A stretch of DNA of 64,000 nt from assembly GCA_964016885.1 (NCBI GenBank), contig OZ024749.1, forward strand, positions 16,616,001 through 16,680,000. Direction: 5' to 3'. Below are positions 2,635 through 56,559 of this stretch, piece by piece. The position numbers were made by a program, and so were the translations under genes. The notes beneath the pieces are model-generated. The model was not told where the DNA came from and did no database searches. It saw only the letters and a program-made list of their open reading frames with translations. The DNA comes from Eledone cirrhosa (Eukaryota). Within the stretch, counting starts at the first letter, position 1, and every line of letters begins with the position of its first letter.

Positions 2635-3354
2635 ATGAAGTAAATTAAATCAACATAGATTTAGACTAAAACGAACAAAACTTCCCTGAAACAATAACAA
2701 GTACAGCTAAATATAAAATATATTTTTTAATGTAAGGTAGTGAACCACATAATTAAATAGACGGAGGTATTTTAAATAATAAATATATCTTTAATTTACT
2801 TAAAGCAATAACCAGGTACAGCTCAATATAAAATATATTTTATAATGTAAGGTAGTGAACAAGATAATTAAATAGACGGAGGTATTTTAAATAATAAAGA
2901 CAGTCATGACAACAATATATTTTATATCACATGTAACAGTGGAATCTGGTTAATTACTGGATCGTTGTAAGGTTCACATAATTATATTATTTACACACAT
3001 TAATATAGACATTAAGTAAATTTTTGTCAACTTACCTCCTTGAGATATAATCAATGTGTTGCGTTGTTAGGTTTTACTAAACAACCAAAGAAATAATCTC
3101 TTTGTTATAAAATTAGAAGTTTCAAAGATGTTATCAGCTTTATTTCACGACATTAACGTTGGTTTATCTTCTTTATCTTTAGTCATAAATTGATATATTG
3201 TCAGAATGAAGTAGTGAGGCTGACTTTATGTCTTTAGCTACAGATTTGATAGGAAATATATATATATATCAGGTTAATATGTGGTCTAAAATATATATAT
3301 ATTGTCTATAAATGACTGATAGCAGATGTTCTGGTGAAATAGTAGTTTTACTAC

Positions 3355-3633
3355 TGTGGGTATGGTGTGGCGTGCGGTGGCCGGGGGCGGGGGAGTGCTC
3401 GACTGGAAGGGGTTTTTGAGTGCTCGACCGGAAGGGGTCTTTGACCAGAAGGATGCTCGACCGGAAGGGCCAGGAGAGGGCCTCTCTCTAGTGGTGACCA
3501 GCATACGGTGAGGACGTGTTTTTGGGCAGCTCCCGGTGTTAAGCAGTCGGACGCACGTGGAAGAGGAGTACCTGCAGTAGAATTTAGCGGCGCCTGTGAA
3601 AAGCGGTAAGTGAGGTAGCTTTTTCTAACCACA
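3355..3633 (+). repeat. 5' LTR (279 bp)
   Basis: Starts TGTGG and ends CCACA. Differs from 7076-7357 by about 5 substitutions and a 3-nt G-run indel. Confidence 0.95.
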
Positions 3634-3708
3634 AGCTATTTCGGCGACTGAAAAAAAAAAAAAAAAAAAAAAAAAAAAGAAAACACTTGCCGCAAAACAA
3701 ATCAGAAG

Positions 3709-4470
3709 ATGGCGACAAGACTACGGATGAACGAAGCTATCAGGCCATTCACCGGGGAAGGTGATGTTGTCGCTTGGCTGCGGAAGGTTCGGCTGGTCGC
3801 GGGCTTGCAGAAGATAGAAGACGTGGCCGGTTTCATTGCATTGTACCTCGAGGGCGACGCGTTGGTACTCTTCCTTGAGTTGGACCACCACAGTCAAAGA
3901 GATGTGCAGAAGATTGAGAGGCGTCTGATGGATGCATTCGCCGAGGGACCGTTGGCGGCTTTTGCTAAGCTGGCGAGAATCAGGTGGAATGGTGAGCGCG
4001 TCGACATTTTCGCAGCGGAAATAAGGCGGTTGGCTATGTTGGCTGGTTACCAGGCGGAATGCGAACGCACGGTGCGGTTGGCATTCATCAATGGATTTCC
4101 GGACGACATAGCGGTGAAACTGCAGCAAGTCCCGGGGTACAAGGAGATGGAAATGCGTTCACTGGTCGAACAAGCCCGGATCATAGCGGAAGATGCCAAA
4201 AAGAGTGTCGCGGCGATAGCAACTACGGAGGCTCAGGACACCTGGCAGCGAAATAGTCGAAGGGAGGCAACCTCGGCACGCGGCCGTTCGCGAGAATTTA
4301 GAGGCCGCTGTTTTAGATGTCACGGCCCGCATATGGCTAGAGACTGTAGAGAGTCGAAGCCGGATATAATTTGCTACCGGTGTAAGCGACCAGGCCACAT
4401 CGCTACTAACTGCGACCAGGGAAACGATCCAAGGGGAACTACTGCGCCGGTAGTTGCCCCTTACGAGTAG
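3709..4470 (+). CDS. gag: Gag-like protein with two zinc knuckles
   Basis: 253-aa ORF with CFRCHGPHMARDC and CYRCKRPGHIATNC knuckles near the C-terminus. Confidence 0.9.
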   Translation: MATRLRMNEAIRPFTGEGDVVAWLRKVRLVAGLQKIEDVAGFIALYLEGDALVLFLELDHHSQRDVQKIERRLMDAFAEGPLAAFAKLARIRWNGERVDIFAAEIRRLAMLAGYQAECERTVRLAFINGFPDDIAVKLQQVPGYKEMEMRSLVEQARIIAEDAKKSVAAIATTEAQDTWQRNSRREATSARGRSREFRGRCFRCHGPHMARDCRESKPDIICYRCKRPGHIATNCDQGNDPRGTTAPVVAPYE

Positions 4471-4476
4471 CGGCGC
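4419..4476 (+). promoter_or_regulatory. Programmed -1 ribosomal frameshift signal (slippery heptamer plus H-type pseudoknot)
   Basis: G GGA AAC in the gag frame (4419-4425), a 5-nt spacer, then stem AAGGGGAACTAC/GTAGTT(G)CCCCTT. Loop GCGCCG is complementary to CGGCGC at 4471-4476. Pol is in the -1 frame and open from the slip site. Confidence 0.85.
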
Positions 4477-7063
4477 TGCCCATGGTGGAAGTCTTCGTGA
4501 GGGGGAAGCCACAGCGAGCCCTCGTGGATACGGGCTGTACGACGACACTGGTGACCGCGGGGGTGGCGCAGAGGTGGGGAGGGAAGAGCAGCGTAAGGGC
4601 AGTCGACGGCAGGAAAATTGAATGCCGAGGTCGCAGCGAGATGGAAATAGCGGTACGGGGAAGGACGATAAGGCTTTCCGCCATCGTGGTAGACAGTGTG
4701 GTGGATGGGATCGGCGTGGTTATGGGCATGGACGCGATTGGCCGTCTAGGGGGCGTCACGGTGAACAATGTCGGTGTGTCATTTGGCGCCGCTGCATCAG
4801 TATGCGCTGTGAGTGCACGTCATGAGAACCAGAAGGCCCACGAGGAGCAATACCCCGCTTACACTGTACAGGACAAGGACTTCAAGGCCGTGTTTGATGG
4901 GCAGCGATGGGTTGTTGAGTGGTACTGGAAGGGAGAACCACCAACACTGAAGACCAAAGTGGGCTGTTATCAACACACATTGAAGGGAAACGCTAGGGGC
5001 GAGTTCGAGCGAGAAGTAGAGAGATGGATCGAAGAGGGCATACTGCTTCCCTGGAAGGAGGAGGTGAAGTGCGGAGTATTGCCGTTGATGGCGGTGGTGC
5101 AACCCACGAAGAGCAAGGTGAGGCCGGTGCTGGACTATCAAGAGCTGAACGAGCACGTGTCATGCTACACGGGTGGCGAGGTCACGGATGTCTGTGGGGA
5201 AACCCTGCGTGAGTGGAGACGCATGACGGGGGGTTCAGCGATCGTGGATCTAAAGTCGGCTTACTTGCAGTTGCATATAGATGAGAAGCTCTGGCGGTAT
5301 CAGCTGGTCAGGTATAAGGGCCAGACATATTGCCTGACCAGGCTCGGTTTCGGGCTGAGCTCCGCACCGAAGATCATGGCGGCGGTCCTCAAGACCGCTC
5401 TGGGGAAGGCCGACAAGATAAAGAGGGCTACTAACTCCTACATTGACGACATCCTAGTGGACGAGTCGGTGGTGTCGACGGCGGAGGTCACGAGCCATTT
5501 GCGGAGGTATGGACTGACTGCGAAGCCATCAGAAGCATTGGAGGGAGGAGCCGCGCTGGGACTTAGGCTACGGCGAGATAAGACAGGCGTTTTGGTGTTC
5601 CAGAGGGGAAACGAAGTTCCGGAACTGGGCCCAAGTATGAATAGGCGGGAGCTTTTCTCGGTGTGTGGAAAGCTGGTGGGTCACTACCCGATCGCTGGGT
5701 GGCTCCGGACGGCATGCAGCTATGTCAAGAGACGAGTGGGAGGGGTGACTTGGAGTGACAGAGTGGGAGAGAGAACGGTGGCCATGATGCAGGAGATCGT
5801 GGGGAGGGTGAAGGCCGACGACCCAGTGCGGGGACGCTGGTACGTTCCCAAATCACGGAGCGGGACCGTATGGTGCGATGCCAGCAGCATAGCGCTGGGT
5901 GTCACGTTGGAGATAGGAGGTGTTGAGGTCGAGGATGCAGCCTGGCTTAGAAAGGACGACTGCAGCCACATCAATGTGGCCGAGCTGGACGCGGTGTTGA
6001 GAGGGGTGAACCTCGCCCTGCGGTGGGGGCTGCGCACCATCGAGATACGCACCGACTCGGCTGGGTAAGATCAGTGCTCACCAGTGAGAAGAGAGTGCGA
6101 ACGAGAGGCGCGGCGGAGATGCTGATAAAGCGCCGCCTGGGAACGTTAGGAGAGCTGGCCACCGAGTTCGACCTGAGGCTGAGCGTAGTGTTCGTGCCCT
6201 CAGAGAAAAATAGGGCGGACATCTTAACTAGAGTGAAGAAAGCCTGGATGGAAGCGCCGGAGGAGGTAGAGGATGAGATAGCTGCCGTGTGTCGGCTGAC
6301 CGAGTTAGACCGGCAGGGAACGTACCTCTCGATGGTCGACTGTGGACCAGGACGGATGGCGATATGGAGGGAGATGAAGACTGGAACGGCCGAGGAAATC
6401 GTGCGGACGTTGAGAGAGGTGTTCTTGGAGCGGGGCCCTGTGGATGAACTGCTGATGGACAACAGCGCAGCGTTCCGCTCGGAGGCACTGAGGGAGATGC
6501 TCGATGGATGGAAGGTGGACCGTTTCTTCAGAGCGGCGCACAGGCCGAGCGGGAATGGAATCGTGGAGCGACACCACCGGATGATCAAGGCAATGGCGGA
6601 GCGGGGCCATATCTCACCAATGGAGGCAGTGTTCTGGTACAATATGTCCCCTCGGGTTGGACAGGTCGAGGAATCGGTGCCACATAGAGCAGTATTCAAA
6701 TACGAGTGGCGGCACCCGTGCACACCACCACAACGGCCAGTGGGGAGAGAAAGTGCATTCGTGCAGGTGGGCGAAGAAGTCTGGGTTAAGCCCCCAGATG
6801 CACGGTGCACATCTCAATGGGGAAGGGGAACGGTGACGGCCGTAAATTCAAAGAACAATGTGTCCGTGGACGGGGTACCACGTCATGTCCTGGATGTAAG
6901 AAGAATCACTGTGTCGACGGACTCCGAGGAAGAGGAAACCCAAGATGAGGTGGAAACCCAGAGCCCTGCCCCAATACTACGAAGATCGCAACGAAGTCGT
7001 AGACCACCGACCTGGACGGCAGACTTTCATATGCAGAGGGACGAGGGGGAAATTGATCCTTGA
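4422..7063 (+). pseudogene. pol: Pol (aspartic protease, RT, RNase H, integrase) with a frameshift near 6060 and apparent loss of the integrase N-terminus
   Basis: ALVDTG (PR); DLKSAYLQ, RLGFGL and YIDD (RT); WCDAS..HINVAEL..IRTDS (RH); LMDN-35aa-E (IN). Split over ORFs 4482-6068 and 6023-7063. No HHCC motif is visible. Confidence 0.88.
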
Positions 7064-7075
7064 GATCAGGGGACG

Positions 7076-7357
7076 TGTGGGTATGGTGTGGCGTGCGGTG
7101 GCCGGGGGAGGGGGGGGAGTGCTCGACCGGAAGGGGTTTTTGAGTGCTCGACCGGAAGGGGTCTTTGACCGGAAGGATGCTCGACCGGAAGGGCCAGGAG
7201 AGGGCCTCTCTCTAGTGGTGACCAGCATACGGTGAGGACGTGTTTTGGGGCAGCTCCCGGTGTTAAGCAGTCGGACGCACGTGGAAGAGGAGTACCTGCA
7301 GTGGAATTTAGCGGCGCCTGTGAAAAGCGGTAAGTGAGGTAGCTTTTTCTAACCACA
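7076..7357 (+). repeat. 3' LTR (282 bp)
   Basis: Direct repeat of 3355-3633, preceded by purine-rich gagatcaggggacg. Confidence 0.95.
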
Positions 7358-7448
7358 GGTGAAATAGTAGTTTTACTACTACAGATTGTAATGGAACTCT
7401 TAGTAGACACAATTGTAAAGTAAAGGAATTAGAAACAGTTTTATCAAA

Positions 7449-7875
7449 ATTTATTTCCTTATATTATCAGCAGAAGTTGGTATGTCACCCAAAGTTCGCT
7501 TTGTATGTTCCCGAATAGCAGTGAATTTTGATAAAACTGTTTCTAATTCCTTCTCCACAGTAAGACTATATCCATGTGTAGTTGAAGAGGATAAGTATGA
7601 AAGAACAGTCATTTAAATTTACAGATGGACAGATGTGGTGTTTGGCAGGGTTTGAGATATATAGAAAAATAATTATTTACAGAAAAAGAAAATAATAATA
7701 AAGAATTATTATAATTTTTTTAAAGATTTATATCTTTTGGACTACACATGGATATTTGTCTTACTGTGGAGAAGGAATTAGAAACAGTTTTATCAAAATT
7801 CACTGCTACTCGGGAACATACAAAGCGAACTTTGGGTGACATACCAACTTCTGTTGATAATATAAGGAAATAAAT
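7449..7875. repeat. Inverted repeat with about 134-bp arms
   Basis: 7449-7582 is the near-exact reverse complement of 7741-7875. A 29-nt piece is present a third time at 7423-7451. Confidence 0.85.
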
Positions 7876-9434
7876 CAGTGAAGGTATTTATTACATTTTG
7901 ATTGCATTTTTATTACAACCACTAATACTTACCATTATACCGAGGGACCCTGCCCGTTCGGGAAAAGCTCTACAGACACGGATTCCGGGACGGAAACCCC
8001 TTGGAAAAGAAATGTCCCAGATGCGTTTGCAACGAGGAAACTGTGGGGATATGTCGCCGGCCAACAAATGGTCCTCTTCTTCCGATACCACTTCGAAAGA
8101 AGGATCAAGGTGGAGAAAAAGGCACTCAGTCCCAGCCAATTCCATGAAAGATGGGTGAAAGTAGCAATAATGGCCCGTGTAAGGGGGCCATCTCTCTATA
8201 TCGGCTTGTACAGGTAAGAAAAGGGAGCACCCCCTCTCTCTGTGCTCCCTGGCAGAAAGGTCGCACACTTTCTACGGGGGTGTGTGTGACCCCAAAAGGC
8301 TAATAAATCGCAAAAAAACAAACAAACAAACAAAAAAGGGGCAAATAAAGAAATCTATGCCCCAGTGGCAAATAAATCGCAAAAAAAAAAACAATAAATA
8401 AATCTATATTTCTTTTAACGGCTAAAAAAAGGGGAATGTAAATTTGTTGGAATTGCCTCATACATTGAAGTAAGCGGCATTTAGGCCGCTAAAATTGGAT
8501 ATCGCCGAAAATTGTGTATATATATATCCCACCATATGTCCATAATCGGCAGGATGGTGTGGATTTTTATTTTTTGTGTTCTTCTACCCATGTACGTAGG
8601 GTAGAATGTGTATGCGGTGGATGTGATTGGTTTGATGGACAGTTTCACTGCTGTGTCCCTGTCCTTCATGAGAATGGATAGACTCCCGTAGAGTCTATCC
8701 TTCTGAATGAAGGTGATGTCCTTCAATTGTTACACAAGAGATATAATTAGATTAATTAAAGTTATAATGAAGACAGCAGTACTCGGTGTCGTTGGGAATG
8801 TTTCAACTCTCGTACCGGTGTCATACGTTAAAAGTCTCTGATATAATTTAATACATTCAGACAATTCCAATCGTATTTAATCGATAGTAAATCAGAAAGT
8901 ATCACTCAGTAAAATATCAATTATATATCAATAAGAAAACCTCTACGTAGTCTCTCTAACTGCTAGAAATAGCAGTGATATTATCCATTACAACTTAGTT
9001 TTTTGTTTAAAATCTCCAAAGTTTAGTTATATAATCAACAGCAAATCTTTTGTACAGACTTCGGAATAAACTGGAAGACCGTCAGAATATCATTCTCCCT
9101 CTTATATATATATATATATATAAATTAGCGAGAATCGTATTTCAACTCAAGAATTAACGAAAAACAACTTCCGAGATGTGTGGCAAGCGCTCGATGATTC
9201 ATATGAATCAGAGCTACAACATACGTTAAAGGCCAAACACACTGAGAAACGACCAAGTAATTCGGGTCAAACAATAAAAATATATGTGATTATATATATA
9301 TATACATTTAGCTTTGTTGGTTCACCACTGGTAGAACTAGTCATTCCGTATTGTCAACCTTGATGTAATATTAGGGAGAGCACTCGACGTAATCCTATAT
9401 TTCAGGTTATTGTTATCATGACTCTTTATTATTT

Positions 9435-11511: not shown

Positions 11512-11921
11512 GGAGGCACGTGTCCTAGTGGTAAGGGTGTTGGACTTACGATCATAATGTCGTGGGCTCGATTCCTGGGTTGCGTGTTGTGTTCTTGAGC
11601 AAACCACTTCATTTTACGTATACTCAGCTGAAAATGAGTACCAGCAATAGCTGGAGGTTTAACCTGCAATGGACTGGTGTCCTGTCCTGGGAGAAGTCTT
11701 GTACTCTCACTTGCTTAATATATACTTTACATAACCCTGTGATGGACTGGTGTCCTGTCCAGGGGGTGTCTTGTACTGTCAGCTGCTTAATATATACTTT
11801 ACATAACCCTGCGGTGGACTGGTGTCCTGACCAGGGGGAGTCTTGTACTCTCAGTCGATTCACGCCATGAAACCGGGATAAGCTCCGGCCAAATGAGCCT
11901 TCTGGCTTAAGACAGACTTTA
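11512..11921 (+). mobile_element. tRNA-derived SINE with an internal 72-bp triplication
   Basis: Head ggaggcacgtgtcctagtggtaaggg with B box ggctcgattcc. Repeats aaccctgyrrtggactggtgtcc start at about 11661, 11733 and 11805. Confidence 0.75.
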
Positions 11922-12383
11922 GATATATATATTTCTATATATTTATATCAAGCAAGAATTTGTTGGTGATTCCTCTCTCTTCCACAGAATCTCTGTATTG
12001 GACAACAAGACTCAGTAGAGTGTCTCCTTCATATGTTGGACTACCTCAACACCAACGATCCTCTCACAGGTAAGTACATATCCATCAAAACTGGAGGTGA
12101 ACCAATTATCAAAGTACTTCAACATCTTTTTAACTGTTTTATCACTACAGAAAAAAGCCCAGTCATGTTCAAGGAAGCATGGATATTTGTACTCTACAAA
12201 AAGGTAGCAGACTTGATTGTAGGAACTATTGTCCTATCAGCCTATTAACCCTTTAATGTTCAAACCGGACAAAACCGGCCAGAATTCTCTACATCTTTGT
12301 GTTGAAACTGGCTGTAACTGGTCGCTCAAACTGATGTTATGGTATTGTTCTCAAAATAAATACATTCAAAATCTCATAGATTC

Positions 12384-13520
12384 AATATTATGTAAGATAA
12401 AGCCTTTACTGTGAAAATACAATAGTATATATAGAGTAAAGTAAATGTTATGTGAGATATTATGTAAGATAAAGCCTTTACTGTCAAAATACAATAGTGT
12501 ATATAGAGTAGTGTAAATGTTATGAGAGATATTATGTGAAGTAAAGCCTTTACTGTGAAAATACAATAATATATATGGAGTAATGTAAATGTTATGTGAG
12601 ATATTATGTGAGGTAAAGTCTTTACTGTGAAAATACAATAGTACATATACCGAGTAATGTAGATGTTGAGATATTATGTGAGGTAAAGCCTTTACTGTGA
12701 AAATATAATTGTATCTACTTTTGGCACAAGGCCAGTAATTATCCCAGTACTTTACTGGTACTTTATTTTATCGACCCCGTAAGGATGAAAGGCAAAGTAA
12801 ACCTCGGCAGGAATTGAACTCAGATCGTGAAAATATAATAGTATGTATTGAGTAATGTAAATGTTATGTGAGATATTATGTGAGGTAAAGCCTTTACTGT
12901 GAATACAATGGTATCATCATCATCATCATCGTTTAACGTCCATGTTCCACGCTTGCATGGGTTTGGACGGGATTTTTCCCACTTGAGGCAAGAGTGGTTG
13001 TCTTGCTCGCATAGGACTGTCTGGCGGGTTTTCTACAGCTGGATGCCCTTCCTAACACCAACCACATTTACAGTGTATATAGAGTAATGTAAATGTTATG
13101 TGAGATATTATGTGAGGTAAAGCCTTTACTGTGAATACAATAGTATATATATAGTAATGTAAATGTTATGTGAGATCTTATGTGAGGTAAAGACTTTGCT
13201 GTGAAAATACAATAGTATATATAGAATAATGTAAATGTTATGTGAGATATTATGTGAGGTAAAGCCTTTACTGTGAATACAATAGTATATATATAGTAAT
13301 GTAAATGTTATGTGAGATCTTATGTGAGGTAAAGACTTTGCTGTGAAAATACAATAGTATATATAGAGTAATGTAAATGTTATGTGAGATATTATGTGAG
13401 GTAAAGCCTTTACTGTGAAAATACAATAGTATATATAGAGTAATGTAAATGTTATGTGAGATATTATGTGAGGTAAAGTCTTTACTGTGAAAATACAATT
13501 GTATATATAGAGTAATGTAA
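12384..13520 (+). repeat. 72-bp minisatellite array (copy 1) containing inserted SINE and RTE 3'-UTR pieces
   Basis: Monomer tactgtgaaaatacaatagtatatatagagtaatgtaaatgttatgtgagatattatgtgaggtaaagcctt. Follows the TTAA-CCCTTT element that starts at 12245. Confidence 0.95.
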
Positions 13521-15289: not shown

Positions 15290-16088
<799 letters not shown>

Positions 16089-25570: not shown

Positions 25571-26879
25571 GATGAAGTAAATTAAATCAAAACAGATTTA
25601 GACAAAAACGAACACAACTTCCCTGAAACAACAACAAAGTAGAGCTAAATATAAAATATATTTTATAATGTAAGGTAGTGAACCACATAATTAAATAGAC
25701 GGAGGTAATTTAAATAATAAATATATCTTTAATTTACTTAAAGCAATAACAAGGAACAGCTAAATATAAAATATATTTTATAATGTAAGGCAGTGAACAA
25801 GATAATTAGATGGACGGAGGTAATAAAATAATAAACAGTCATGATAACAATATATTTTATATCACATGTAACAGTGGAATCTGGTTAATTACTGGATAGT
25901 TGTAAGGTTCACATAATTATATTATTTACACACATTAATATAGACATTAAGTAAATCTTTGTCAACTTACCTCCTTGAGATATAATCAATGTGTTGTGTT
26001 GTTAGTTTTTACTAAACAACCAAAGAAATAATCTCTTTGTTATCAAATTAGAAGTTTCAAAGATGTTATCAGCTTTATTTCATGACATTAACGTTGGTGT
26101 ATCTTCTTCATCTTTAGTCATAAATTGATATTTTGTCAGAATGAAGTAGTGAGGCTGACTTTATGTCTTTAGCTACAGATTTGATAGGAAATATATATAT
26201 ATATTAGGTTGATATGTGGTCTAAAATATATATATTGTCTATAAATGACTGATAGCAGATGTTCTGGTGAAATAGTAGTTTTACTACTACAGATTGTAAT
26301 GGAACTCTTAGTAGACACAATTGAAAAGTAAGAATAGATACGACAGTGTAAGACTGATGTCGGGGAATTAAAATTGTGTCTTGCTCAAGGAAACAACACA
26401 TCACCTGGTCTGAGAATTGAACTCACAACCTTTCAATTGCAAGGCCAATGCTCTAAACACTAAGCCATGTGCCTCCATATATAAATATTTATATCAAGCA
26501 AGAATTTGTTGGTGATTCCTCTCTCTCTCTCTTCCACAGAATCTCTGTATTGGACAACAAGACTCAGTAGAGTGTCTCCTTCATATGTTGGACTACCTCA
26601 ACACCAACGATCCTCTCACAGGTAAGTACATATCCATCAAAACTGGAGGTGAACCAATTATCAAAGTACTTCAACATCTTTTTAACTGTTTTATCACTAC
26701 AGAAAAAAGCCCAGCCATGTTCAAGGAAGCATTGATATTTGTACCCTTTAATGTTCAAACCGGACAAAACCGGCCAGAATTCTCTACATCTTTGTGTTGA
26801 AAGTGGCTGTAACTGGTCGCTCAAACTGATGTTATGGTATTGTTCTCAAAATAAATACTTTCAAAATCTCATAGATTCA

Positions 26880-27420
26880 ATATTATGTAAGATAAATCCT
26901 TTACTGTGAAAATACAATAGTATAGAAAGAGTAGTGTAAATGTTATGTGAGGTTTAGCCTTTACTGTGAAAATACAATAGTATATATAGAGTAAAGTAAA
27001 TGTTATGTGAGATATTATGTAAGATAAAGCCTTTACTGTGAAAATACAATAGTATATATAGAGTAAAGTAAATGTTATGTGAGATATTATGTAAGATAAA
27101 GCCTTTACTGTGAAAATACAATAGTATATATGGATTAATGTAAATGTTATGTGAGATATTATGTGAGGTAAAGCCTTTACTGTGAAAATACAACAGTATA
27201 TATAGAGTAAAGTAAATGTTATGTGAGATATTATGTGAGGTAAAGCCTTTACTGTGAAAATATAATAGTATATATAGCGTAATGCAAATGTAATGTATGA
27301 AAATACTATGAAAATACAATAGTATATATAGAGTAATGTAATTGTTATGTGAGGTACAGTCTTTACTGTGAAAATACAATAGTATATATAGAGTAATGTA
27401 AATAATATGTGAGGTAAAGC
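26880..27420 (+). repeat. 72-bp minisatellite array (copy 2)
   Basis: Same monomer as 12384-13520. Confidence 0.95.
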
Positions 27421-27714
27421 TTCTCTTCCTCTCTCTCTAGAAAGCCAGATCTTTTCTCAACCATGGAACCATGTATTACTTGATGTCCTGTTTAGGGGTC
27501 ACAAACTGTCAGATTTCTCTGACCCTATTCTTTCGTTCATCATCAAGGTAAAGTCTCGCTTTATTTATATCCCTGCTTTGTGTGGTTGGTGTTAGGAAGG
27601 GCCTCCAGCTATAAAATACCCAACAGTCCTCACCGGAGCAAAGCGCAATGGGAGCCAACTATGGCAAGACTTGACCCAGATTCTGCCTCCTTCACTCTGT
27701 ATATCACCAGAACT

Positions 27715-28549: not shown

Positions 28550-30079
28550 TCAGTGATATGGTTTCTTACATCTATGTATACGTCTGTGTTTAGATAAATG
28601 ACTACTTACAGAGAATGATTTACCACAGATATCACAGTGGTATGGCTTCTCACCTGTATGGGTACGTAAGTGTCTAGTTAAGGTACTACTTACAGAGAAT
28701 GATTTACCACAGATGTCACAGTGATATGGCTTGCCTCCTGTATGGACACGTTTGTGAGTAGTTAAGGTACAACTTTCAGTGAATGATTTACCACAGATAT
28801 CACAATGATATGGCTTGTCTCGTGTATGGATACGTTTGTGTTTAGTTAAGTTACTACTTGTAAAGAATGATTTACCACAGATATCACAGTGGTATGGTTT
28901 CTCACCTGTATGTATACGTTTGTGGCTAGTTAAGTGACCACTTTGAGCGAATGATTTACCACAGATATCACAGTGGTATGGTTTGTCTCCTGTATGTGTA
29001 TGTTTGTGGCTAGTTAAGGCACTACTTACAGAGAATGATTTACCACAGATATCACAGTGATATGGCTTGTCTCCTGTATGGGTACGTTTGTGACTAGTTA
29101 AGGCACTACTATCAGAGAATGATTTACCACAGATATCGCAGTGATATGGCTTGTCACCTGTATGTATACGTTTGTGAGTAGTTAAGGCACTACTTTGAGA
29201 GAATGATTTACCACAGATATCACAGTGATATGGCTTGTCTCCTGTATGTATACGTTTGTGACTAGTTAAGGCACTACTATCAGAGAATGATTTACCACAG
29301 ATATCACAGTGATATGGCTTGTCTCCTGTATGGGTACGTTTGTGACTAGTTAAGTTACTACTATCATAGAATGATTTACCACATATATCACAGTGATATG
29401 GCTTGTGTCCTGTATGTATACGTTTGTGAGTAGTTAAGGCACTACCATCATAGAATGATTTACCACAGATATCACAGTGGTATGGCTTCTCACCTGTATG
29501 GGTACGTTTGTGTATAGTTAAGGAACTACTATCAGAGAATGATTTACCACAGATATCACAGTGATATGATTTCTCTCCTGTATGGGTACGTTTGTGTCTA
29601 GTTAAGTTACTACTCTGAGAGAATGATTTACCACAGATATCACAGTGATATGGCCACTCTTCTGTGTGTATACGCTTGTGTTTAGTTAAGGTACTACCAT
29701 CAGAGAATGATTTACCACAGATATCACAGTGATATGATTTCTCTCCTGTATGGGTACGTTTGTGTCTAGTTAAGTTACTACTCTGAGAGAATGATTTACC
29801 ACAGATATCACAGTGATATGGCCACTCTTCTGTGTGTATACGCTTGTGTTTAGTTAAGGTACTACCATCAGAGAATGATTTACCACAGATATCACAATAT
29901 GGCTTCTCTCCTGTATGTATAACTTTGTGAGTAGTTAAGGTACTCCATTTATTGAATGATTTACCACAGATATCAGAGTGATATGGCTTCTCTTCTCTAA
30001 CCTTTGTCATTTCACCAGGAATACTTAACACTTTAGATCGTGTTTCACATTTAATCTTCTCAGTCAACATATTTTCCAT
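28550..30079 (-). CDS. Tandem C2H2 zinc-finger protein, 509 aa, 17 fingers (first degenerate), single coding exon
   Basis: Open ORF of [10 protein letters not shown]-x-LTxHKRxH-TG(E/D)KP repeats with a short (about 30 aa) N-terminus and no recognisable effector domain. An upstream splice acceptor tttcatttcAG lies at 30423-30422. Confidence 0.93.
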
Positions 30080-30779
30080 GATTTTTTCTTCAACAGAATA
30101 TACAAATGTTTTACTTGTAATATTTCCTATATTATATTCCTAAAAATATATCTTCTATATTTCCATCAACTGTGATTTCAGTTAATATCTGAAGATAATA
30201 CAAACATATGTTTCACCCAAGTTTAGTTAAAATACAAAACCATATCATAGTGAAGAAAATAAACTCAGTTCTGAGGAAATATTTCACGGTAATTGAACTA
30301 TAGATTTATATAAAGTGTTATATAAGTTCTGTTTAAAATGTTTTAGTCTTCAAATGATGATAAATATAGGTGATGTGTCCGAGATTGAAAATAATTATTT
30401 ATCCCAATGTCATCTGGTATTCTGAAATGAAAAAAAAACCGTATGAGATAATAGAGAACACTTTCGAAGCAGAGATAGATTTAACAGTGGAAATTTTATA
30501 TTTCTATATTGGTAAACTGTAGATATAAACTTTCCGGTCCAGAGTAATTCTCTCCAATGGAAGCAGTGGTTTTCCAGCATACTCTATAAATTATATCCTT
30601 CTATCTCTAGAGAGGTCTGCTCTATGGCAGTTTAGTGAAAAATTCATTCTGATAGCACTTTCTAACGTAGCTATCATCTCCTCTCCTGGTGACATGTCAA
30701 CACAGGTTTAACATATACATATATAAATATATATACACACACATATATATACATATACACATATATATATATATGTAAC

Positions 30780-31985: not shown

Positions 31986-33850
31986 GCTTGCAAGGGTGGG
32001 ACGGGTTTTATTCAGCACAGCATCTCTCCACTTGTCACGGTCCTTCGTCATCTCCACCGTGAGCTTCAGCAATCTGAGGTCTGTTCTCACCACCTCTGCC
32101 CATGTTTTTCGTGGTCTACCTCTAATGCGTCTTCCTTCAACTGGCATTTCCTGGCACTTCTTCACCCATCGGTCATCCTCCATGCGCATCACATGTCCAT
32201 ACCACCTCAGTCTCCTCTCTCGCACACTACATCTATCCCTCACAACACATCCATGCTGGGTCGTTTACACACATTGACATTGCACATCCAACGGAGGATG
32301 CTTGCCTCATTTCTCTCCAGCCGTCGCATATCCTCTGCAGTTGCTGCCCATGTCTCACTACCATGCAGCATCGCGCTCCTCACACAGGCATCATATAACC
32401 GACCTTTCGTACGCAGGGAGAAACCCTTCTTTGTCAGCAGAAGAAGCAGCCCCCTAAATTTCTTCCAACCCGTCCTTATTCTAGATACTATGGCCTCGGA
32501 ACACTCCTCCCTCCCATGCTAATCTGATCTCCTAGGTACCGGAAGCTATCCACCATTTCTATAGCACCCGCCTGCATTTGAAAAATGTGTCTATCAATGT
32601 GACTTCTACTGTCTAATTTCCGTGTACATCTACTGCATACATATTTCTCTATCTGTTAGTGTGCCTGCTATCCCACTACATCTCTTGTGTACCCGAGATA
32701 TTCATTGTGTGCATTTTATAGAATTTATGCCAGTTCCTTTTCTGCATATCGGACATGGCCATTTCCCTGACGGAATCAGCACTTTTGTCTTAGCTAGGTT
32801 CACTCTCAGGCCTCTTGGTTCCAACTACTGTTTCTATACCCAGAATTTATTCTCTAGCTCCTCTACTGATTCTGCTATAAGAACCAGATCATCAGCATAG
32901 AGAAGTTCCCATGGACAGCCAGTCTTAAACTCCTCTGTTATGGCTTGGAGGACTATAATGAACAAGAGCGGGCTGAGGACCGAACCTTGATGTACTCCTA
33001 CTCGTATCTGAAATTCCTCACTAAACTTCATTCCTACCCTGACTTTACTGACAGTACCTCTGTACAAAGTTTGCACTGTCCTCACAAGCCATTCCTCAAC
33101 ACCTAGTTTCCTTAGGGACCACCAGATGACAGATCGGGGTACTCTATCAAAGGCCTTCTCTAGGTCAACAAAGGCTAAATATAGTGGCTTATTCTTCTCT
33201 AAGAACCTGTCTTGTAATTGTCTCACTAAGAAGAGGGCATCTGTTGTACTTTTCCGAGGCCCAAAACCAAACTGCATCTCATCTAGTTTAACCCTTTCTC
33301 GAATTAGTTGTGCTAATATCCTTTCTGTCACTTTCATAACCTGATCCATCAGTTTTATACCCTTATAATTGCTCCTTTCCAGAGCATCCCCTTTACCTGT
33401 GTGACAATTTATGAGAATACTTCTGCACCAGTCTTTGGGTATGACACCACCATATATAGCCTGATTGATGATGCGTGCAACCAGTTTAGTGCTTACGTCC
33501 CCTGATACCTTCAGCATCTCAGCAACTATACCCGATGGTCCAGCAGCCGTACCATTTTTCATTTCCTTAATCTCCTCTTGGACCCTATATTCGCCAATCT
33601 CAATAGCTGGTCCCTCTGTCAGATCTACTGAGGGTAATTTCTCTCTCTCCCATTCGTTCTCCACATTCATCAGACTCTCATAATGACATTTCCAGGCCTC
33701 CTTTTTCTGATCATTCGTGACACTAAGTACACCGCGGACACATTTATCTCCAACAACATCCTGATTTGCATTGACACACTGCCTTGCAATGTGGAACACC
33801 GCTCGCCTCTGATCTTCCCGTTGCAGAACATTGGCAAACCTCCCACTCAC
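31986..33850 (-). mobile_element. RTE LINE 3' half (RT plus C-terminus), tail-to-tail with the previous copy
   Basis: QFGFGPRKSTTD, DLEKAFDRV, GVHQGSVLSPLLF, YADD and RRLRWYGH. Confidence 0.92.
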
Positions 33851-34067
33851 ATATATACATATATATATATACATGTATATATATATACATGTATATATAT
33901 ATACATATAATATATATATATATACATACATATACATATATATACATATACATATATATACATACATATGCATTTATATACATATACATATATATATACA
34001 TACATATACATATATATATACATACATATACATACATATATACATACATATATATATACATATATAT

Positions 34068-37000
34068 CATCATCATCGTTTAACGTCCATCTTCCACGCT
34101 TGCATGGGTTTGGACGGGAGGTTTCCCACTTGAGGCAAGATTTGTTCGCAAAGGCGGGGTTTCTACGGCTGGATGCCCTTCCTAACACCAACCACGTTTA
34201 CAGTGTGGACTGGGAGGTTTTTACCGTGTTACCTACACGGCCACATTACAGCGTGGTCTGTGTGTTTTTTTGTCGTGACACCTACACCACCTCATTTGTT
34301 TCGGACTGGATGTTGTGGTACCAACATAACTTTACATTGAAAGGGGTGGTGTGGATGGGGTGGGGGTAGTGGGGCGGGGGTGTATTTTGTTAGAGGTGCC
34401 TACTGACTGTAGTAGGTTTTACTTTGTATTTAGGTAAGGCGAGTCTTCTCTATTACTGTGTAGCGCCAAAGATCCCGGTCCAGTGACATTGTCTTGGAGA
34501 GGTGTAAGTGTGTGAGGTCGGAATTTATCAAGTCGTCCCAGGTTTTTCTGGGTCTGCCTACTCAGTGGCTACCGTCTATCTTTATTGCCCTGCACTTTTT
34601 TATACAGCTGTCGTCTTTCATGCGCATCACGTGACCATACCAACGTAGCCTTCTCTCGAATAAACAACATCTGATCCCTCTTATTTCTAATTTTTCCCTT
34701 GCCATTCACATATATTACTATTACACATCCAGCGGAGCATGCAAGCTTCGTTCCTCTCTAGTCTGCGTATATCCTCTGCACACAATGCCCAGGTCTCACT
34801 GCCATGCAACATTGCTGTTCGTATGCAGGCATCATACACCCTGCCTTTCATTTTTAGGGAAAACCCTTTAGCGGCTAATAGTGGTATAAGCTCTCTGAAC
34901 TTTTTCTATCCAGTTCTGACTCTAGCTACTGTTCTTTCAGAGCACCCTCCACCACTGCTGATTTTGTCACCCAGGTAACGGAAGGTGTCCACTATTTCTA
35001 TAGAACCATCTGTGCAATGGAATGAGCTAGTATTCTGTGGGCACTTGCTGCTACTTATTGCACCAGAGCACCGGCCACATATAAAATCTATGTTCTCAGT
35101 TAGCTTACCTGTGTTCCCACTACATCTTTTATGCACCCATACTTTGCATTTGGGACATAAAATGGAGTTTCTACCTACTCCTTTCCTACACACTGAGCAT
35201 GGCCAATTCCCGGATGGAACCGGTGCCCTATTTTCCTTCTTACAAACTAGAACTTTAGTCTTAGACAGATTAATTTTAAGGCCTTTTGATTCTAGGCCAT
35301 GCTTCCATGTTTGGAATTTCTTCTCTAGTTCAGCCATTGATTCATATGAGCGTTAGATCATCTGCATATAGGAGTTCCCATGGGCAGCCGGTCTTGAACT
35401 CCTCTGTTATAGCCTGAAGGGCAATAATAAATAGTAGAGGGCTAAGAACGGAGCCCTGATGAACAACTTTTACTCTAAACTCTTCACTATATTCGTTGTT
35501 AATTCTAACCTTGCTGACTGTTTCTTTATACATGGCTTGTATAGCTCTCACAAGCCATTCATCAACACCTAGTTTTCTAAGAACCCACCAGATAATGGAA
35601 CGGGGGACTCTGTCGAAGGCTTTCTCCAAGTCGACAAAAGCTAAGTATAGGGGTTTACTTTTAGCTAGGTACTTCTCCTGTAGTTGTCGTACAATGAAAA
35701 GAGCGTCTGTGGTACTTTTACCTGACACAAACCCGAACTGCATTTCATCTAGATCAATTCGCTCTCTGATTAGTTGCACTATTACTTTTTCTGTGACCTT
35801 CATGACCTGGTCGATTAATTTAATGCCTCTATAGTTACCCCTATCTAGGGCATCTCCTTTACCCTTGTCACAGTTAATGATGCTGCTACGCCAGTCCTTT
35901 GGAACAACCCCATTCTGTATGACTTGGTTTACTATCCGGGTGACCATGGTGTGTCCCACCATTCCAGAAGCTTTCAGCATTTCAGCAACTATTTCCGAAG
36001 GCCCAGCCGCCTCACATCTTTGATTGCTTTACTTATTATACTACCTTCGACTAACACTGCTGGTCCCTCTATTGGATCGATGTGGGGGAGACTGTCTTTC
36101 TCCCATTTATTCTCCTTTCGTAGTGACACTTCCAAGCTACCTTCTTATCAGCGTCAGTGATGGCAAGTACACCATCATCATTAAGGACACACTACTCCCC
36201 GACAATAACACGGTTTTCCTTGACACATTGCCTAGCAATCCTGAACACCTTACATTTTTGGTCCTCGCGTTGTAGAACATGCTTGAACTTTCTTTCCTCT
36301 GCTTCCCTTCTTGCGAAGTACACTTGTCTCCTAGCTTCCCTCCTGGCCACTTGATAGTCTTCTCTACTTCCCCCATCCCGCCATACTTTCCAAGCCTGCT
36401 TTTTGGCCTTAATTGACTCCTCCACCTTACTGTTCCACCACCACGTTACTCTCCTCCTGCCTATAGGCCTGCTCCAGCCACAGACTTCGTCTGCCGCAAT
36501 CAGCAGGTTTGCTTTCAGGAATTCCCACTGTTCCTCTATATTGTACGACTCTAAGTGCTCTTCCTTACTGTCAAAAGCATCAAGTAATATGCTTTTAAAT
36601 TTATTACTGGCTGTGGGGTGCTTTAGCTTCCATATTTTTCTCCTGAGGATAGTCCTCTTTTGTTGTCGAGTACGTCTCGTCCTGACTATGAGGTCGCTAA
36701 TTATCAGTCTATGTTGGGAGGTGCATTCTTCATGGGGGAGGGATTTAGTGTTTACAACAGACACTCTGTCACGTCTTCTGGTAAGGATATAATCTACCTG
36801 ACTGGTATGTTCCCCTGATCTGTAGGTGATCAAGTGATTGTCTCGGTTTTTTAAGTTAGTGTTACAGATAGTTAGGTTAATTGCGTCACAGAATTCCAGG
36901 ATTCTGGAGCCTTCCTCATTTCTAGTACCAAACTCATAGCCTCCATGGATTCCGTCATAGCCGTCACAATGTTGTCCAACGTGACCATTTAGGTCGCCAG

Positions 37001-37620
37001 CAATAATTATATAGTCATTGTTGGTTATTTGGGAGGTAGTGAGCATCAGTGTCTCATAGAATCTGTCTTTTATAGCGCCAGGCAGTCCGGATTGGGGTGC
37101 GTATGCAGATATTACTGTCACAGTAGTTTTATTTAGAACAAGTCTTATTTTAATTATTCTGTCATTCACTCTATTTACGTCTATTATGTTATCCACCCAT
37201 TTTTCTGCTAACATGATTCCTACCCCACCCAGCCCATTGTCATTTCCCACCCAGAAAAGCTTATAGCATCGTTTTTTACCCACAATGAATCTAGCAGACC
37301 CGCCCTTCCACCTGGTCTCTTGGATACAGCAAGCATCAACCTCCTTACATTCAAGCATTTCTACAACCTCGTTAGAGCGGCCTTTTAAGGTGCCTACATT
37401 CACGGTACCAACTCTGAAGTTTTGGATTGCGTTTGGTGGGTGGGGCGCAGGGAGGGGTGAGGGGGATGGGGTTCGGGTTGGGGTTATGTTGGCCATCTGC
37501 GGCCGAAACAAAGAGGAGGAGTCCTTGCCCTTTCGTCCAGCAGCATGAGGTGAATTTGTCGTTATCTTTGGCATTGTCTCCGAGTGTCCAGATTCTTCAG
37601 ACTCTCCAGAAATTCCTTAG
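34068..37620 (-). mobile_element. Near full-length RTE LINE (APE endonuclease, RT, PHD-like finger, 3' UTR, (ATG)n tail), frameshifted
   Basis: ORF pieces 37574-36192 (VGTVNVGTL, CIQETRW, GDLNGHVG, HRLIISD), 35980-35342 (YADD) and 35337-34906 (CSVC..CPKC..HKRC..CGRC). 3' UTR about 34430-34068. Confidence 0.93.
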
Positions 37621-43960: not shown

Positions 43961-45118
43961 TAGATGAAGTAAATTAAATCAAAACAGATTTAGACTAAAT
44001 CGAACAAAACTTCCCTGAAACAACAAGGTACAGCTAAATATAAAATATATTTTATAACGTAAGGTAGTGAACCACATAATTAAATAGACGGAGGTAATTT
44101 AAATATTAAAGATATCTTTAATTTACTTAAAGCAATAACAAGGTACAGCTAAATATAAAATATATTTTATAATGTAAGGTAGTGAACAAGATAATTAGAT
44201 GGACGGAGGTAATAAAATAATAAAGTCATAACATGATAACACAACATTTTATATCACATGTAACAGTGGAATCTGGTTAATTACTTAATAGTTGTAGGGT
44301 TCACATAATTATATTATTTACACACATTAATATAGACATTAAGTAAATCTTTGTCAACTTACCTCCTTCACATATAATCAATGTGTTGTGTTGTTAGTTT
44401 TTACTAAACAACCAAAGAAATAATCTCTTTGTTATCAAATTGGAATTCTCAAAGATGTTATCAGCTTTATTTCACGACATTAACGTTGGTGTATCTTCTT
44501 CATCTTTAGTCATGAATTGATATCTTGTCAGAATGAAGTAGTGAGGCTGACTTTATGTCTTTAGCTACAGATTTGATAGGAAATATATATATATATATTA
44601 GGTTGATATGTGGTCTAAAATATATATATTGTCTATAAATGACTGATAGCAGATGTTCTGGTGAAATAGTAGTTTTACTACTACAGATTGTAATGGAACT
44701 CTTAGTAGACACAATTGTAAAGTAAGAATAGATATGACAGTGTAAGACTGATGTCGGGGAATTAAAATTGTGTATATATATAATTGTTACACAAGATATA
44801 ATTAGATTAAATGTTATAATGAAGACAGCAGGTACTCGGTGTCGTTGGGAATGTTTCAACTCTCGTACCGGTGTCATACTTTAAAAGTCCCTGATATAAT
44901 TTAAAACCTTCAGACAGTTCCAATCGTATTTAATTTATTGTAAATCAGTAAAATATCAATTATATATCAATAAAAGAACCGCTACGTAGTATCTCTAACT
45001 GCTAGAAATACCAGTGATATTATACATTACAACTTATTTTTTTTTGTTTAAAATCTCCAAATCTTTTGTACAGATTTCGGAATAAACTGAAAGACCGTGA
45101 GAATATCATTCTCCCTCT

Positions 45119-46620: not shown

Positions 46621-46751
<131 letters not shown>

Positions 46752-47457
46752 ATGTTGTCTCCCCTACATCAGTCTTACACTGTCATATCTATTCTTACTT
46801 TACAAGTGTGTCTAAGAGTTCCATTACAATCTAGTAGTAAAACTACTATTTCACCAGAACACCTGCTATCAGTCATTTATGTATATACATATATATATAT
46901 GTATATAAAAGCTAAATGGAAATAACAACACAATCGGTACAGTATATGGAAGGGATATATTAGGTTAACACTTGATATAGCAGGAAGACGGTCTTAACGT
47001 TTCAGACGCTAGTCCTTCATCAGAAGAAAGAATGAGAAATAAAATAGATTGAGGGGACGGGTGGGTTGGAATTGGAAAAAATGTCTTTAGCTAAAAAATG
47101 TCTATGTAATGAGGAAGAGAGAGTGGTTGTGACAGAATAGATTGAAAGAGAGACAAAGAGAGAAGGAGACAGAGAGCTGGCGGTATTGTGCATATATATA
47201 TATATGTGAATGTGTGTGTATATATGTATATGTTTGTGTATAGATCACAGACACCCACATATATATATACACACATACATATATATATATGTATACACAC
47301 ACACTTATATATATATATACACACACATTTATATATATGAAACTTCCAGTTTCAGATCATATACATGTCTGTATAAAATTATTTTGAGGTAAACTTTACC
47401 CAACGGGTCACAGGTGGTCTAATACATACATATATATATATATATAAATATATATAT

Positions 47458-47802: not shown

Positions 47803-48155
47803 ATATATATATATTTATATCAAGCAAGAATTTGTTGGTGATTCCTCTTACTCTCTCTCTTCCACAAAGCTGGAGGTGAACCAATTATCAAAGTACTTCA
47901 ACATCTTTTTAACTGTTTTATTACTACAGGAAAAAAGCCCAGACATGTTCAAGAAAGCATTGATATTTGTACTCTACAAAAAAGGTAGCAGGCTTTAATG
48001 TGGGAATTATTGTCCTATCAGCCTATTAACCTTTTAATGTTCAAACCGGCCAAAATTCTCTACCTCTTTCTGTCGAAACTGGCTGTAACTGGTCACTCAA
48101 ACTGATGTTATGGTATTGTTCTCAAAATAAATACTTTCAAAATCTCATAGATTCG

Positions 48156-48632
48156 ATATTGTGTAAGATAAAGCCTTTACTGTGAAAATACAATAGTATA
48201 CATAGAGTAATGTAAATGTTATGTGATATATTATGTGAGGCAAAGCCTTTACTGTGAAAATACAATAGTATATATAGAGTAATGTAAATGTTATGTGAGA
48301 TATTATGTGAGGTAAAGCCTTTACTGTGAAAATACAATAGTATATATAGAGTAATGTAAATGTTATGTGAGATATTATGTGAGGTAAAGCCTTTACTGTG
48401 AAAATACAATAGTATATATAGAGTAATGTAAATGTTATGTGAGATATTATGTGAGGCAAAGCCTTTACTGTGAAAATACAATAGTATATATAGAGTAATG
48501 TAAATGTTATGTGAGATATTATGTGAGGCAAAGCCTTTACTGTGAAAATACAATAGTATATATAGAGTAATGTAAATGTTATGTGAGATATTATGTGAGG
48601 CAAAGCCTTTACTGTGAAAATACAATAGTATA
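48156..48632 (+). repeat. 72-bp minisatellite array (copy 3, highly homogeneous); resumes at 49509
   Basis: About 6.5 near-identical monomers. Confidence 0.95.
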
Positions 48633-54200: not shown

Positions 54201-55915
54201 TGTAGGGCACCACCAAGCTGTTATCAATTTCATATGTTTTTCCATTTCTCGTAATCATAGCAGTAATCCCACCAAAGTCGGGCGCACGTCAGCAGTAAAT
54301 GGGGTAGCCATCAATTCCAGTGCATGTTTCCTTGTTGAAAGCTCTGGGATATCGTTTCGTGCACTTGTTCTGTGCCATACAGGGTGATGCAGGGTTTATG
54401 ACGCCACATGGTCCGTGTATCATGTGCTTTGAAACAATCCTGAAGAGTTCGGGGTCCTTTTGAGGGTCTGGCAGCTCTGCCCATATAACCCGATCGATGT
54501 CCGAAGGCCTGATTCTCTCCTTGCACCAAATTAATATATGAGCGTGTGGGAGACCCCGTTTCTGCCATTCCACTGTGTACATCCATGCATTCAGTTGCCC
54601 GAAAATGGCACCATGTTTCAGCAACCACGTAAGGTTTTGCAATTTAAGATGGAAAACTCTCGCAGATAAGTCATGTCTGTCGCAGGTTGCCTGTCCGTTG
54701 AATAGTTATTCCTTAATCTCCGGCCAGTTAGGGTTGCATGTGAAGGTTATAAACAGGTTAGGACGCCCAAATTTACGAACATATGACATTGCATCCTGTG
54801 TTTGCTGATGCATATACAGTGGTGACCCGGTAAAGCTGGAAGGTAGAATCACCTGATGTCCAACGTTGGATGTGTCACCGTCACACTGCACAGCGTCCTT
54901 TAGGTGGACGTATTTCTCGGCTCGCAGAGTTTTCTGATTAAGCCGTATGAAAAATAGCCTTTCACCTTCTATTTTGGCGTACATGTCGACCAAGAATTGG
55001 TTAGTTATGTCCCTGAAGCATAGAATTTGGTTGAATTGACCATCTCGAATCATTAGACGGTATGCGTAAAAATCCCTGTAAGAAACACGTTTAGACAATT
55101 CAGCACCGCTCGTCATAGCGAAACACGAATTATATTTCCGTGTGCCCTTGCAGAATTTCTTGGCGTCGTTGGAGTTTCCGGTGAGCATATTTTTCAGAAT
55201 TTCAGGTGGATTTGCCAACGCTTGAAGTCGAACCATACCTCTAGAACAACAAAGTCCGGGTGCATCGTTGCCCCACTTCTTGGCCCCGCAATACTGGCAT
55301 ATCTTGTCCATTTTACCAAGAGTTATGGCAGGGTGATCAGTAAAATCATCAGAACGGCTGTAGTTGAAGCCAGCTTTCATCCAAACAACGCCTCTTGCAG
55401 AAGCTACATTTCTTTGATGTCTCCCTGCCAGCCTTTCTTCTGTTACCACAACCGACTCCTCGAGAAGAGAGCGTTGATTGCGGCTGCGTTTGTGAGCAAG
55501 GCGGGCCTCCTTTGCTTCGGCTGACTCTTCAAGAATAGAGCGTTGATTGCGAATATGCTGGTCAGCAAGGCGGGCCTCCCTTGCTTCGGCTGACTCTTCG
55601 AGAAGAGAGCGTTCATTGCGATCGCGCATGTCAGCAAGGCGAGCCTCCCTTGCTTCTTCAGACTCCTCGAGAACCGAGCGTTCACGATACTGACGTGACG
55701 TTGAAAGTCTGCCTTCTTTTTGGCTAGCCGTTTCCTAGTAAAATAAATACAAAAAAAGTTAATTTAAAATAAAATACAGATAAACGTGTATTGCAAAATA
55801 AGCATAAAAAATAAAAGAAGGCGTACCTATGCTCGCGATTCCCTTTGTCGCAATTTAAGGAGTTTGATTCTTTTAGAAGAGATAATAGAGCATTTTCGTT
55901 TAGGCATAACCTGTG
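51236..55915 (-). mobile_element. Decayed autonomous Helitron encoding Rep-Helicase (frameshifted)
   Basis: FITFTCNPNWPEI, VEWQKRGLPHAHILIW (HUH) and KYICKYINKG (Y2). PIF1 motifs DAPGGTGKT, IIWDE, GDFRQ, FAMTINKAQGQS and HGQLYVGCSRV. 3' hairpin cccgggcaatgccagg plus CTTG|T at 51239-51236. The 5' end was not found. Confidence 0.93.
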
Positions 55916-56559
55916 ATGTGACAGAGCATGTTTAAATTTCTTATTTTCTGCTTCCCTTGCAAAGTATACTTGTCACCTAGCTTTTCTCCTAGCATCCTAA
56001 CAGTGCTCGATACTCCCCCATTCTACCATTTTATCCATGTCTGTCTTTTGGCCTTAATTTTCTCCACCCTACTGTTCCACTACCAAGTCACTCTCCCTCA
56101 ACCTAGAGACCTGCTTCATCCACAGATTTCATTTTTTGCCGTCAAGAATTCCCATTTCTCCACTACTTTAATCAGTCATATCAATCCCAGTACTAATTAT
56201 TCAAAGCTGGCACTTACTTTATTAATCTCTTTTGTCAAATTACACTAAGTTATGGGATATTAGCACACTTACAAACCTAAACATGGTAACACACACACAT
56301 TATGCAAACCTAAACATGGTAACATGCACACGTAGTAGTTTTACACGATCGAACAAACTGTAAATGATTTTTATTGCAGTAGAAGTGTGCTTAGAACGCG
56401 CAAAAAATCAAATCTTGTTCACGATACTGGTGTGATGTTAATGCAACCCATTTAAACTGATTATTGTAGTTAAATAAACTAATGAAATGCAAAGTATGCC
56501 TTATTAATTTGAATGTGTTGTTTATGCAGAAGTCTCCTTAGAACTGTATTGTCCATTTA

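Follow-up and report, generated by a model that had tools for sequence, protein, structure and literature searches.

A 22-bp target-site duplication and a putative tRNA-Phe 5′-end primer-binding site in an LTR retrotransposon family of Eledone cirrhosa

In the Tf1/sushi retrotransposons, reverse transcription is self-primed by a primer of ~11-12 nt that is released from an RNA duplex, at a primer-binding site (PBS) abutting the long terminal repeat (LTR). Truncated tRNAs serve as primers in Copia elements, whose sites match the anticodon loop of tRNA-iMet, Tyr, Ile or Asp, and in the accessible part of the source such shortened primers are mentioned for no lineages other than Copia ones, in plants (PMC10886601). 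[quoted passage not shown] Both themes meet in an LTR retrotransposon located between positions 3355 and 7357 of a 64-kb stretch of Eledone cirrhosa DNA (contig OZ024749.1; hereafter the window), which is flanked by a 22-bp TSD and followed, immediately after its 5′ LTR, by the complement of a tRNA 5′ end.

The copy in the window is defective. We consider it probable, taking the parts together, that it belongs to a family with mostly 5-bp TSDs, that its 22-bp TSD is the product of a single event, and that the family is primed by a 12-nt 5′ fragment of tRNA-Phe. The primer site matters more than the long TSD in this finding, since the long TSD is an already known kind of rare accident, to which the locus adds one invertebrate example and a rate estimate of 1/150.

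The primer-binding site of the family

The 5′ LTR (3355..3633, + strand, 279 bp, TGTGG...CCACA) is followed at 3634..3645 (+) by a putative PBS that adjoins the terminal CA of the LTR and is the exact complement of nt 1-12 of the host tRNA-Phe(GAA). This was an unplanned result, outside the claims of the initial annotation of the window. The complementarity covers 12 of 12 positions and begins at the first base past the terminal CA; the sequence does not start with TGG, and the reverse complement of the site corresponds to the start of host genes called tRNA-Phe(GAA) by ARAGORN. The chance of such a 12-nt match was estimated at ~6e-6, considering 100 tRNA 5′ ends and uniform base use, and no complement of at least 8 nt to the 3′ end of tRNA-Phe was found in the element. 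As in truncated-tRNA-primed elements, the PBS abuts the LTR and complements a part of the tRNA away from its 3′ end. Since the site matches nt 1-12 of tRNA-Phe, copying likely begins from an unusually short tRNA fragment, and we infer that the first 12 nt of this tRNA, cut off as a fragment, likely serve the family as its primer for reverse transcription.

Because the site complements a part of the tRNA that is not its 3′ end, the tRNA would have to be cut. The tRNA-Phe would anneal to the element RNA by nt 1-12, which take in the 5′ strand of the acceptor stem and the first part of the D stem, and would be cut after nt 12 either by the RNase H of the element, by analogy with Tf1, or by a host nuclease. 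Such a cut would provide a 3′-OH precisely at the LTR boundary.

The site was also searched for in 76 metagenome loci of relatives, whose best-segment identity ranged from 36 to 64%. The exact tRNA-Phe 12-mer was found in 11 of them, always after ACA and never in antisense orientation, and the motif ACA-AGCTA occurred 49 times in sense vs. 4 times in antisense orientation, with 4.5 expected, usually 12-38 nt upstream of the gag encoding a CCHC knuckle. Among the 35 related metagenome contigs that held the region, the site or a variant of it was observed upstream of pol in 29. The variation was mostly confined to tRNA positions 4-6, and the four commonest variants all corresponded to 5′ ends of natural tRNA-Phe genes, found on viral contigs. 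A tree labelled by PBS, obtained from a quick search (38 rows), does not demonstrate co-evolution of site and tRNA because kin share labels. As a separate observation, one 134-kb IMG/VR contig (L343) carried clustered tRNA-Ser, Phe and Ser genes, in which the start of the tRNA-Phe complements the commonest variant in the relatives.

Several points weigh against tRNA-fragment priming. First, positions 1-12 of the site showed the commonest base in 97-100% of 119 own-genome copies and positions 13-16 in 65-73%, a conservation that is partly built in because the selection of copies allowed up to 2 mismatches in the 12-mer. Second, the motif was not present in six of the 35 relatives holding the region. 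Third, the tRNAs matching the variants come from viral contigs and not from the hosts of the elements, and in three cases the variant 12-mer is found at the start of Thr, Ile or Leu tRNAs as well. Finally, the priming is inferred from the site, and the primer itself was not observed directly.

This last point also lends some weight to the reading that the 12-nt site serves packaging, dimerisation or regulation through tRNA-Phe or its 5′ fragment, with priming accomplished by self-priming or by a bipartite site; Ty3, for instance, uses additional tRNA contacts. We regard such a role as unlikely, given that the match starts at base 1 past the terminal CA, which is the required place of a primer end, that the tRNA-Phe 3′ end finds no partner in the element, and that the self-complementarity of the family is short. 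In 46 sites, self-complements anchored at the LTR reached only 4-7 nt and those at any stretch 5-8 nt, which corresponds to the chance level. With at most 7 nt anchored and at most 8 nt anywhere, Tf1-type self-priming from the element's own 5′ LTR is not supported.

The proposed priming by a tRNA-Phe fragment thus has two relatives among the described modes. It resembles truncated-tRNA priming of Copia in that a part of the tRNA other than its 3′ end is complemented; as far as the available part of the Copia source indicates, it differs in that the Copia sites lie in the anticodon loop, whereas the site of the window family corresponds to nt 1-12 of an elongator tRNA-Phe in an element with the order protease, reverse transcriptase, RNase H, integrase (PR-RT-RH-IN). 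Tf1/sushi likewise uses a primer of ~11-12 nt from an RNA duplex and a site abutting the LTR, but the window family lacks the self-complement, and its partner would be a host tRNA acting in trans.

No description of a tRNA-Phe nt 1-12 primer site or of the lineage was found in the literature searched, with Repbase and most subscription journals outside its scope; since these and the Troyka supplements lay outside the search, an earlier annotation is possible. The accessible parts of PMC12859917, PMC7472051 and PMC3362945 add nothing on either subject. If the reading is true, a 12-nt 5′ tRNA fragment would serve as primer in a non-Copia element, a mode not found in that literature, and 5′ tRNA fragments would gain a direct role in retrotransposon replication that involves a specific and testable RNA cleavage. 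PBS finders keyed to complements of tRNA 3′ ends would miss such a site.

With regard to the host tRNA genes, a large tandem array of tRNA-Phe genes with a period of ~1.26 kb was noticed at G000:C4:117362945-117538737 and beyond. In the scanned locus, tRNA-Phe alternates with tRNA-Asn, and 231 pattern matches were counted genome-wide.

The 22-bp duplication and the TSDs of the family

The initial annotation had described a 22-bp duplication on both sides of an element with clean TG..CA ends, and this description was borne out. The same 22-mer is found at 3333..3354 (+) and at 7358..7379 (+), with 0 mismatches between the copies, and both LTRs, the 3′ one being placed at 7076..7357 (+, 282 bp), read TGTGG...CCACA. 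At the left junction one extra base fits both sides, so that 23 letters fit either side. The target is part of a dispersed host repeat with 448 genome-wide matches (at most 1 mismatch), and further single occurrences in the window lie at 9957 (-), 26266 (+), 44660 (+) and 46834 (-), those at 9957 and 46834 differing by 2 nt in the hairpin described below. No match to the 22-mer was obtained in 100 shuffles of the sequence. The paralogs at 26266..26287 (+) and 44660..44681 (+) are empty sites, in which a single copy of the 22-mer links the left flank to the right one, the latter matching over its initial 66 bp; of the positions initially given for them, 26266 was exact and about 44659 was off by one. 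None of the 30 empty loci retrieved from the genome had a second copy within 100 bp, and there were no close-lying pairs among the first 100 listed of the 448 genome matches. A pre-existing tandem target was ruled out on these grounds. The perfect repeat at both ends together with the single-copy empty paralogs therefore ties the insertion to the 22-bp duplication, which is confirmed as real in the assembly.

In order to place this duplication within the family, 181 loci were examined. Besides the window locus, they comprised the top BLAST hits, the LTR starts listed as the first 100, and 80 more starts after A, C or T; genome-wide, the LTR start has 419 exact matches, counting both LTRs of a copy, and there are 1231 candidates. 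Both outer ends were present in 151 loci and not in 30, and after removal of one duplicate 150 distinct insertions were scored, 149 besides the window; L034 gave way to L079, and L001-L030, except L016, were replaced by longer sequences of those loci. An exact 5-bp TSD was found in 125 of the 149 other insertions, although 7 of these 125, located in TA runs, are compatible with 7-11 bp as well, and a 5-bp TSD with one mismatch in nine more, which brings 5 bp to 134/149 and sets the family mode within the 4-6 bp range. The remaining cases comprised one TSD each of 4, 6 and 7 bp, three of 3 bp and nine insertions with none; imperfect junctions therefore do occur in the family. None of the 149 carried a TSD >7 bp outside TA runs, so that the window insertion is the sole long TSD among the 150 scored and the frequency of long TSDs among the other copies has an upper 95% bound of ~2%. 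For other species, only three metagenome loci offered a clean LTR at either end together with flanking sequence, which may be chimeric; their TSDs were of 5 bp with one mismatch in two loci and absent in one.

Long near-matches at three loci were rejected. Those at L072 and L116 reflected tandem-repeat periodicity and that at L234 AT-rich sequence; the 5-bp TSD is exact in L116 and L234 and has a mismatch in L072. As minor observations, the 3′ LTR stops one or two bases short of its end in L069 and L193, and L069 then fits a 5-bp TSD; moreover, six LTR starts of the same orientation lie within 0.53 Mb at G000:C8:39730969-40259035, probably as segmental copies of one insertion, and a single locus of this cluster was examined.

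Since 134/149 other insertions carry 5 bp, the long TSD is not a trait of the lineage. It was initially suggested that the lineage might make widely staggered, structure-guided cuts, or else that a one-off aberrant integration had occurred, and finding 4-6 bp at the other copies had been named as the outcome that would reduce the case to a single accident. The census points to that outcome: the first suggestion fails, and the second fits an insertion with no other long TSD among 149. In this single event, the two cDNA ends would have been joined 22 bp apart, either because the integrase joined both without coordination or because host repair captured one of them after the integrase had joined its partner, two courses that the sequence cannot separate; gap filling would then have copied the 22 bp and produced the duplication. 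Going by the accessible parts of the reports on HERV-K (HML-2), XMRV and HIV-1/ASLV, these likewise show a rare long duplication among canonical 4-6 bp ones, through uncoordinated or host-completed integration. They differ in that the XMRV case had lost its CA and aberrant HIV ends are often truncated, whereas the window element is an invertebrate retrotransposon with both ends intact.

Two observations tell against a single aberrant integration. Published one-ended events, so far as these sources are available, often show a truncated viral end or microhomology, while here the ends are intact and 1 nt is shared. In addition, the rows listed for contig runs X3, X4 and X6 (one sample) and for the restriction site-associated DNA sequencing (RAD-seq) run X8 showed the empty joint and no filled junction; the empty joint is not assignable to the locus, and all these runs are uninformative on the filled junctions. 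The contig runs contained at most 0.31 of the sampled sequence words, and in X8, 98 reads cross the empty joint but may derive from paralogs.

Alternatively, a normal 5-bp insertion might have been lengthened later, if break repair at one junction had used the other flank or an empty paralog as template for 17 nt and synthesis had halted in the hairpin. The genome offers 448 potential templates, the left junction shares 1 nt between its two sides, and the hairpin varies among paralogs (2 nt, at 9957 and 46834); this course nevertheless requires a second event that left the LTR end exact, and the right junction has no microhomology, for which reason we judge it improbable, though not negligible. 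Less probable still is an assembly or polishing artefact, in which the extra 17 bp would stem from reads of empty paralogs. The target is high-copy and no junction-spanning read appears among the rows listed, but the LTR ends are exact, the duplication is perfect and the flanks are collinear.

The hairpin itself was confirmed. It has 7-bp arms, folds at -3.8 kcal/mol (z -2.4), is found in full at 7365-7381 around the right copy of the duplication, and the left junction falls inside its 3′ arm, as initially proposed. This placement, and the 17-nt span of the hairpin, which leaves 5 when taken from 22, would favour an integrase that routinely makes widely staggered, hairpin-guided cuts. We hold this to be very improbable, considering the absence of TSDs >7 bp outside TA runs among the other insertions and the results of the palindrome test proposed in the initial annotation, in which targets of the family were no more palindromic than controls. 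The 124 reconstructed exact-5-bp targets did not fold better than 744 flanking controls (minimum free energy, p 0.57), and inverted repeats of at least 7 bp were not enriched in them (10/124 vs. 43/744, Fisher p 0.31); the ten targets with such a repeat still yielded ordinary 5-bp TSDs, and 8.6% of the control windows fold as well as the window target. The hairpin is probably incidental to this insertion; it might have had a role in the single event, but none is needed.

Weakest of all is a pseudo-TSD, for which two elements would have inserted into paralogous repeats at points 17 bp apart and then recombined, a model of staggered insertions discussed in the accessible part of PMC5488345, which we dismiss almost entirely: the window does contain tandemly repeated units with the target inside, but exact junction patterns match only the window locus genome-wide and reveal no second family insertion beside the target motif in the assembly, and the two LTRs are 3 gap bases apart vs. 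at least 17 to the other nearest LTRs listed, with ordinary divergence (5 mismatches and one 3-bp indel, 1.8%, the median for 110 pairs of the family being 2.3%).

Coding content and lineage

Between its LTRs, the element carries on the + strand a gag of 253 aa counted from the first ATG (3709..4470), with CCHC zinc knuckle(s), and a pol in two parts. The first (4410..6068) encodes an aspartic protease, an RT with the motif YIDD, DUF7047 and RNase H, and the second (5951..7063) completes RNase H and encodes a D,D(35)E integrase core. The gag/pol overlap contains a heptamer (4419..4425, +) that is a candidate for -1 frameshifting and is kept in 93 of 105 near-full-length copies, and a segment resembling a polypurine tract (7060..7075, +), similar in relatives, precedes the 3′ LTR. 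The defects of the copy consist of a small frame-breaking deletion near 6060, judged against 25/25 compared copies, and a ~200-bp deletion near 6310, judged against 18/25, which takes out the N-terminal region of the integrase.

Direct TG..CA LTRs, PBS and polypurine tract positions, gag, PR, RT, RH and IN identify an LTR retrotransposon with a DDE integrase. The order PR-RT-RH-IN is that of Ty3/Gypsy (Metaviridae), to which the gag-pol arrangement, the CCHC knuckle, the TG..CA ends, the 5-bp TSD and the D,D(35)E integrase also correspond. However, the relatives differ from Ty3/Gypsy in their domains: all 45 aligned members matched DUF7047 and RVT_3, whereas the Gypsy-typical Pfam RT_RNaseH models were matched by 0/45. 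The clade profile scored 6-15 bits for RT and 42-50 bits for integrase on the one Gypsy-like family tested; as RT references, the own genome yielded only this family, LINEs and a single weak BEL match.

Other assignments were rejected. Ty1/Copia carries its integrase upstream of RT, while here it comes last. Peptidase_A17, the Pao-type RNase H region and DUF1758/1759, the domains of BEL/Pao, were not among the 16 Pfam families matched by the 45 members. DIRS and VIPER do not apply, given an rve integrase in 44/45 members and no match to tyrosine recombinase families. Troyka and the Kuafuorterviruses are, in the accessible parts of their descriptions, likewise a deep-branching LTR lineage of aquatic animals with the same domain order. 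Troyka is there characterized by CG..CG ends, a 3-bp TSD, an (I/V/L)ADD motif and a CX2CX8-10H knuckle (PMC12440569, PMC11673190); as far as these sources go, none of these features holds in the window family, whose TG..CA ends, 5-bp TSD and YIDD exclude it from both groups. The clade motif was not found by motif search in the RT alignments of the Kuafuortervirus supplement, where gaps could hide one.

Relatives were found, going by source names, in a crab (Petrolisthes manimaculis), a sea slug (Plakobranchus ocellatus), a nematode (Trichuris suis) and a sea spider (Nymphon striatum), and none were found in IMG/VR. The RT search returned 1712 protein clusters at E <=0.001, some of which may lie outside the clade, and an ESM Atlas listing was headed by Euglenozoa clusters (0.95), which is taken as a lead only. 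The predicted structure of one relative (P0005; mean predicted local distance difference test score 85.5) matched RT and integrase folds, with 10-19% identity to retroviral, caulimoviral and other RT polyproteins of solved or predicted structure.

Judged from its sequence, the family would work as an LTR retrotransposon of Gypsy order, with an RT that lies far from that of the single Gypsy family tested and is not of Troyka type, and its superfamily is left unassigned. The lineage looks distant from the established LTR superfamilies, yet numerous. A further-reaching reading, which we put forward tentatively and regard as possible rather than probable, is that of a compact (~4.2 kb), widespread invertebrate lineage outside Gypsy, BEL, Copia and Troyka, which would use a tRNA-Phe nt 1-12 primer cut from the tRNA within an RNA duplex and have its site retuned to the tRNA-Phe acceptor stem of each host. 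It might then form an unrecognised superfamily, in which a tRNA acting in trans takes the place of the self-primer of Tf1.

Surroundings of the element in the window

The target sits in a clustered repeat of ~500 bp (44278-44782, with an inverted copy near 46740-46900), whose right end recurs at 44782 and which often forms inverted pairs with a spacing of 1.4-2.6 kb. A segment of ~1.3 kb that is not present in the paralogous units (7424-8725) starts 66 bp past the element and contains a 135-bp inverted repeat (7449-7582 / 7741-7875).

The window as a whole looks like a section of a cluster in which zinc-finger units of ~18-23 kb are arrayed in tandem. C2H2 zinc-finger arrays with an 84-bp period were observed at 28550-30139 (-) and 15330-16020, and arrays of a 72-bp tandem repeat occur in each unit (11600-13500, 26770-27450 and 48040-48630). 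Fragments of a long interspersed nuclear element (LINE) with RT and endonuclease lie at 32834-37616 and 56557-57711 (-), one RT frame running on into a PHD finger, and a fragmented Helitron with PIF1 helicase and Helitron_like_N domains was found at 52487-55734 (-).

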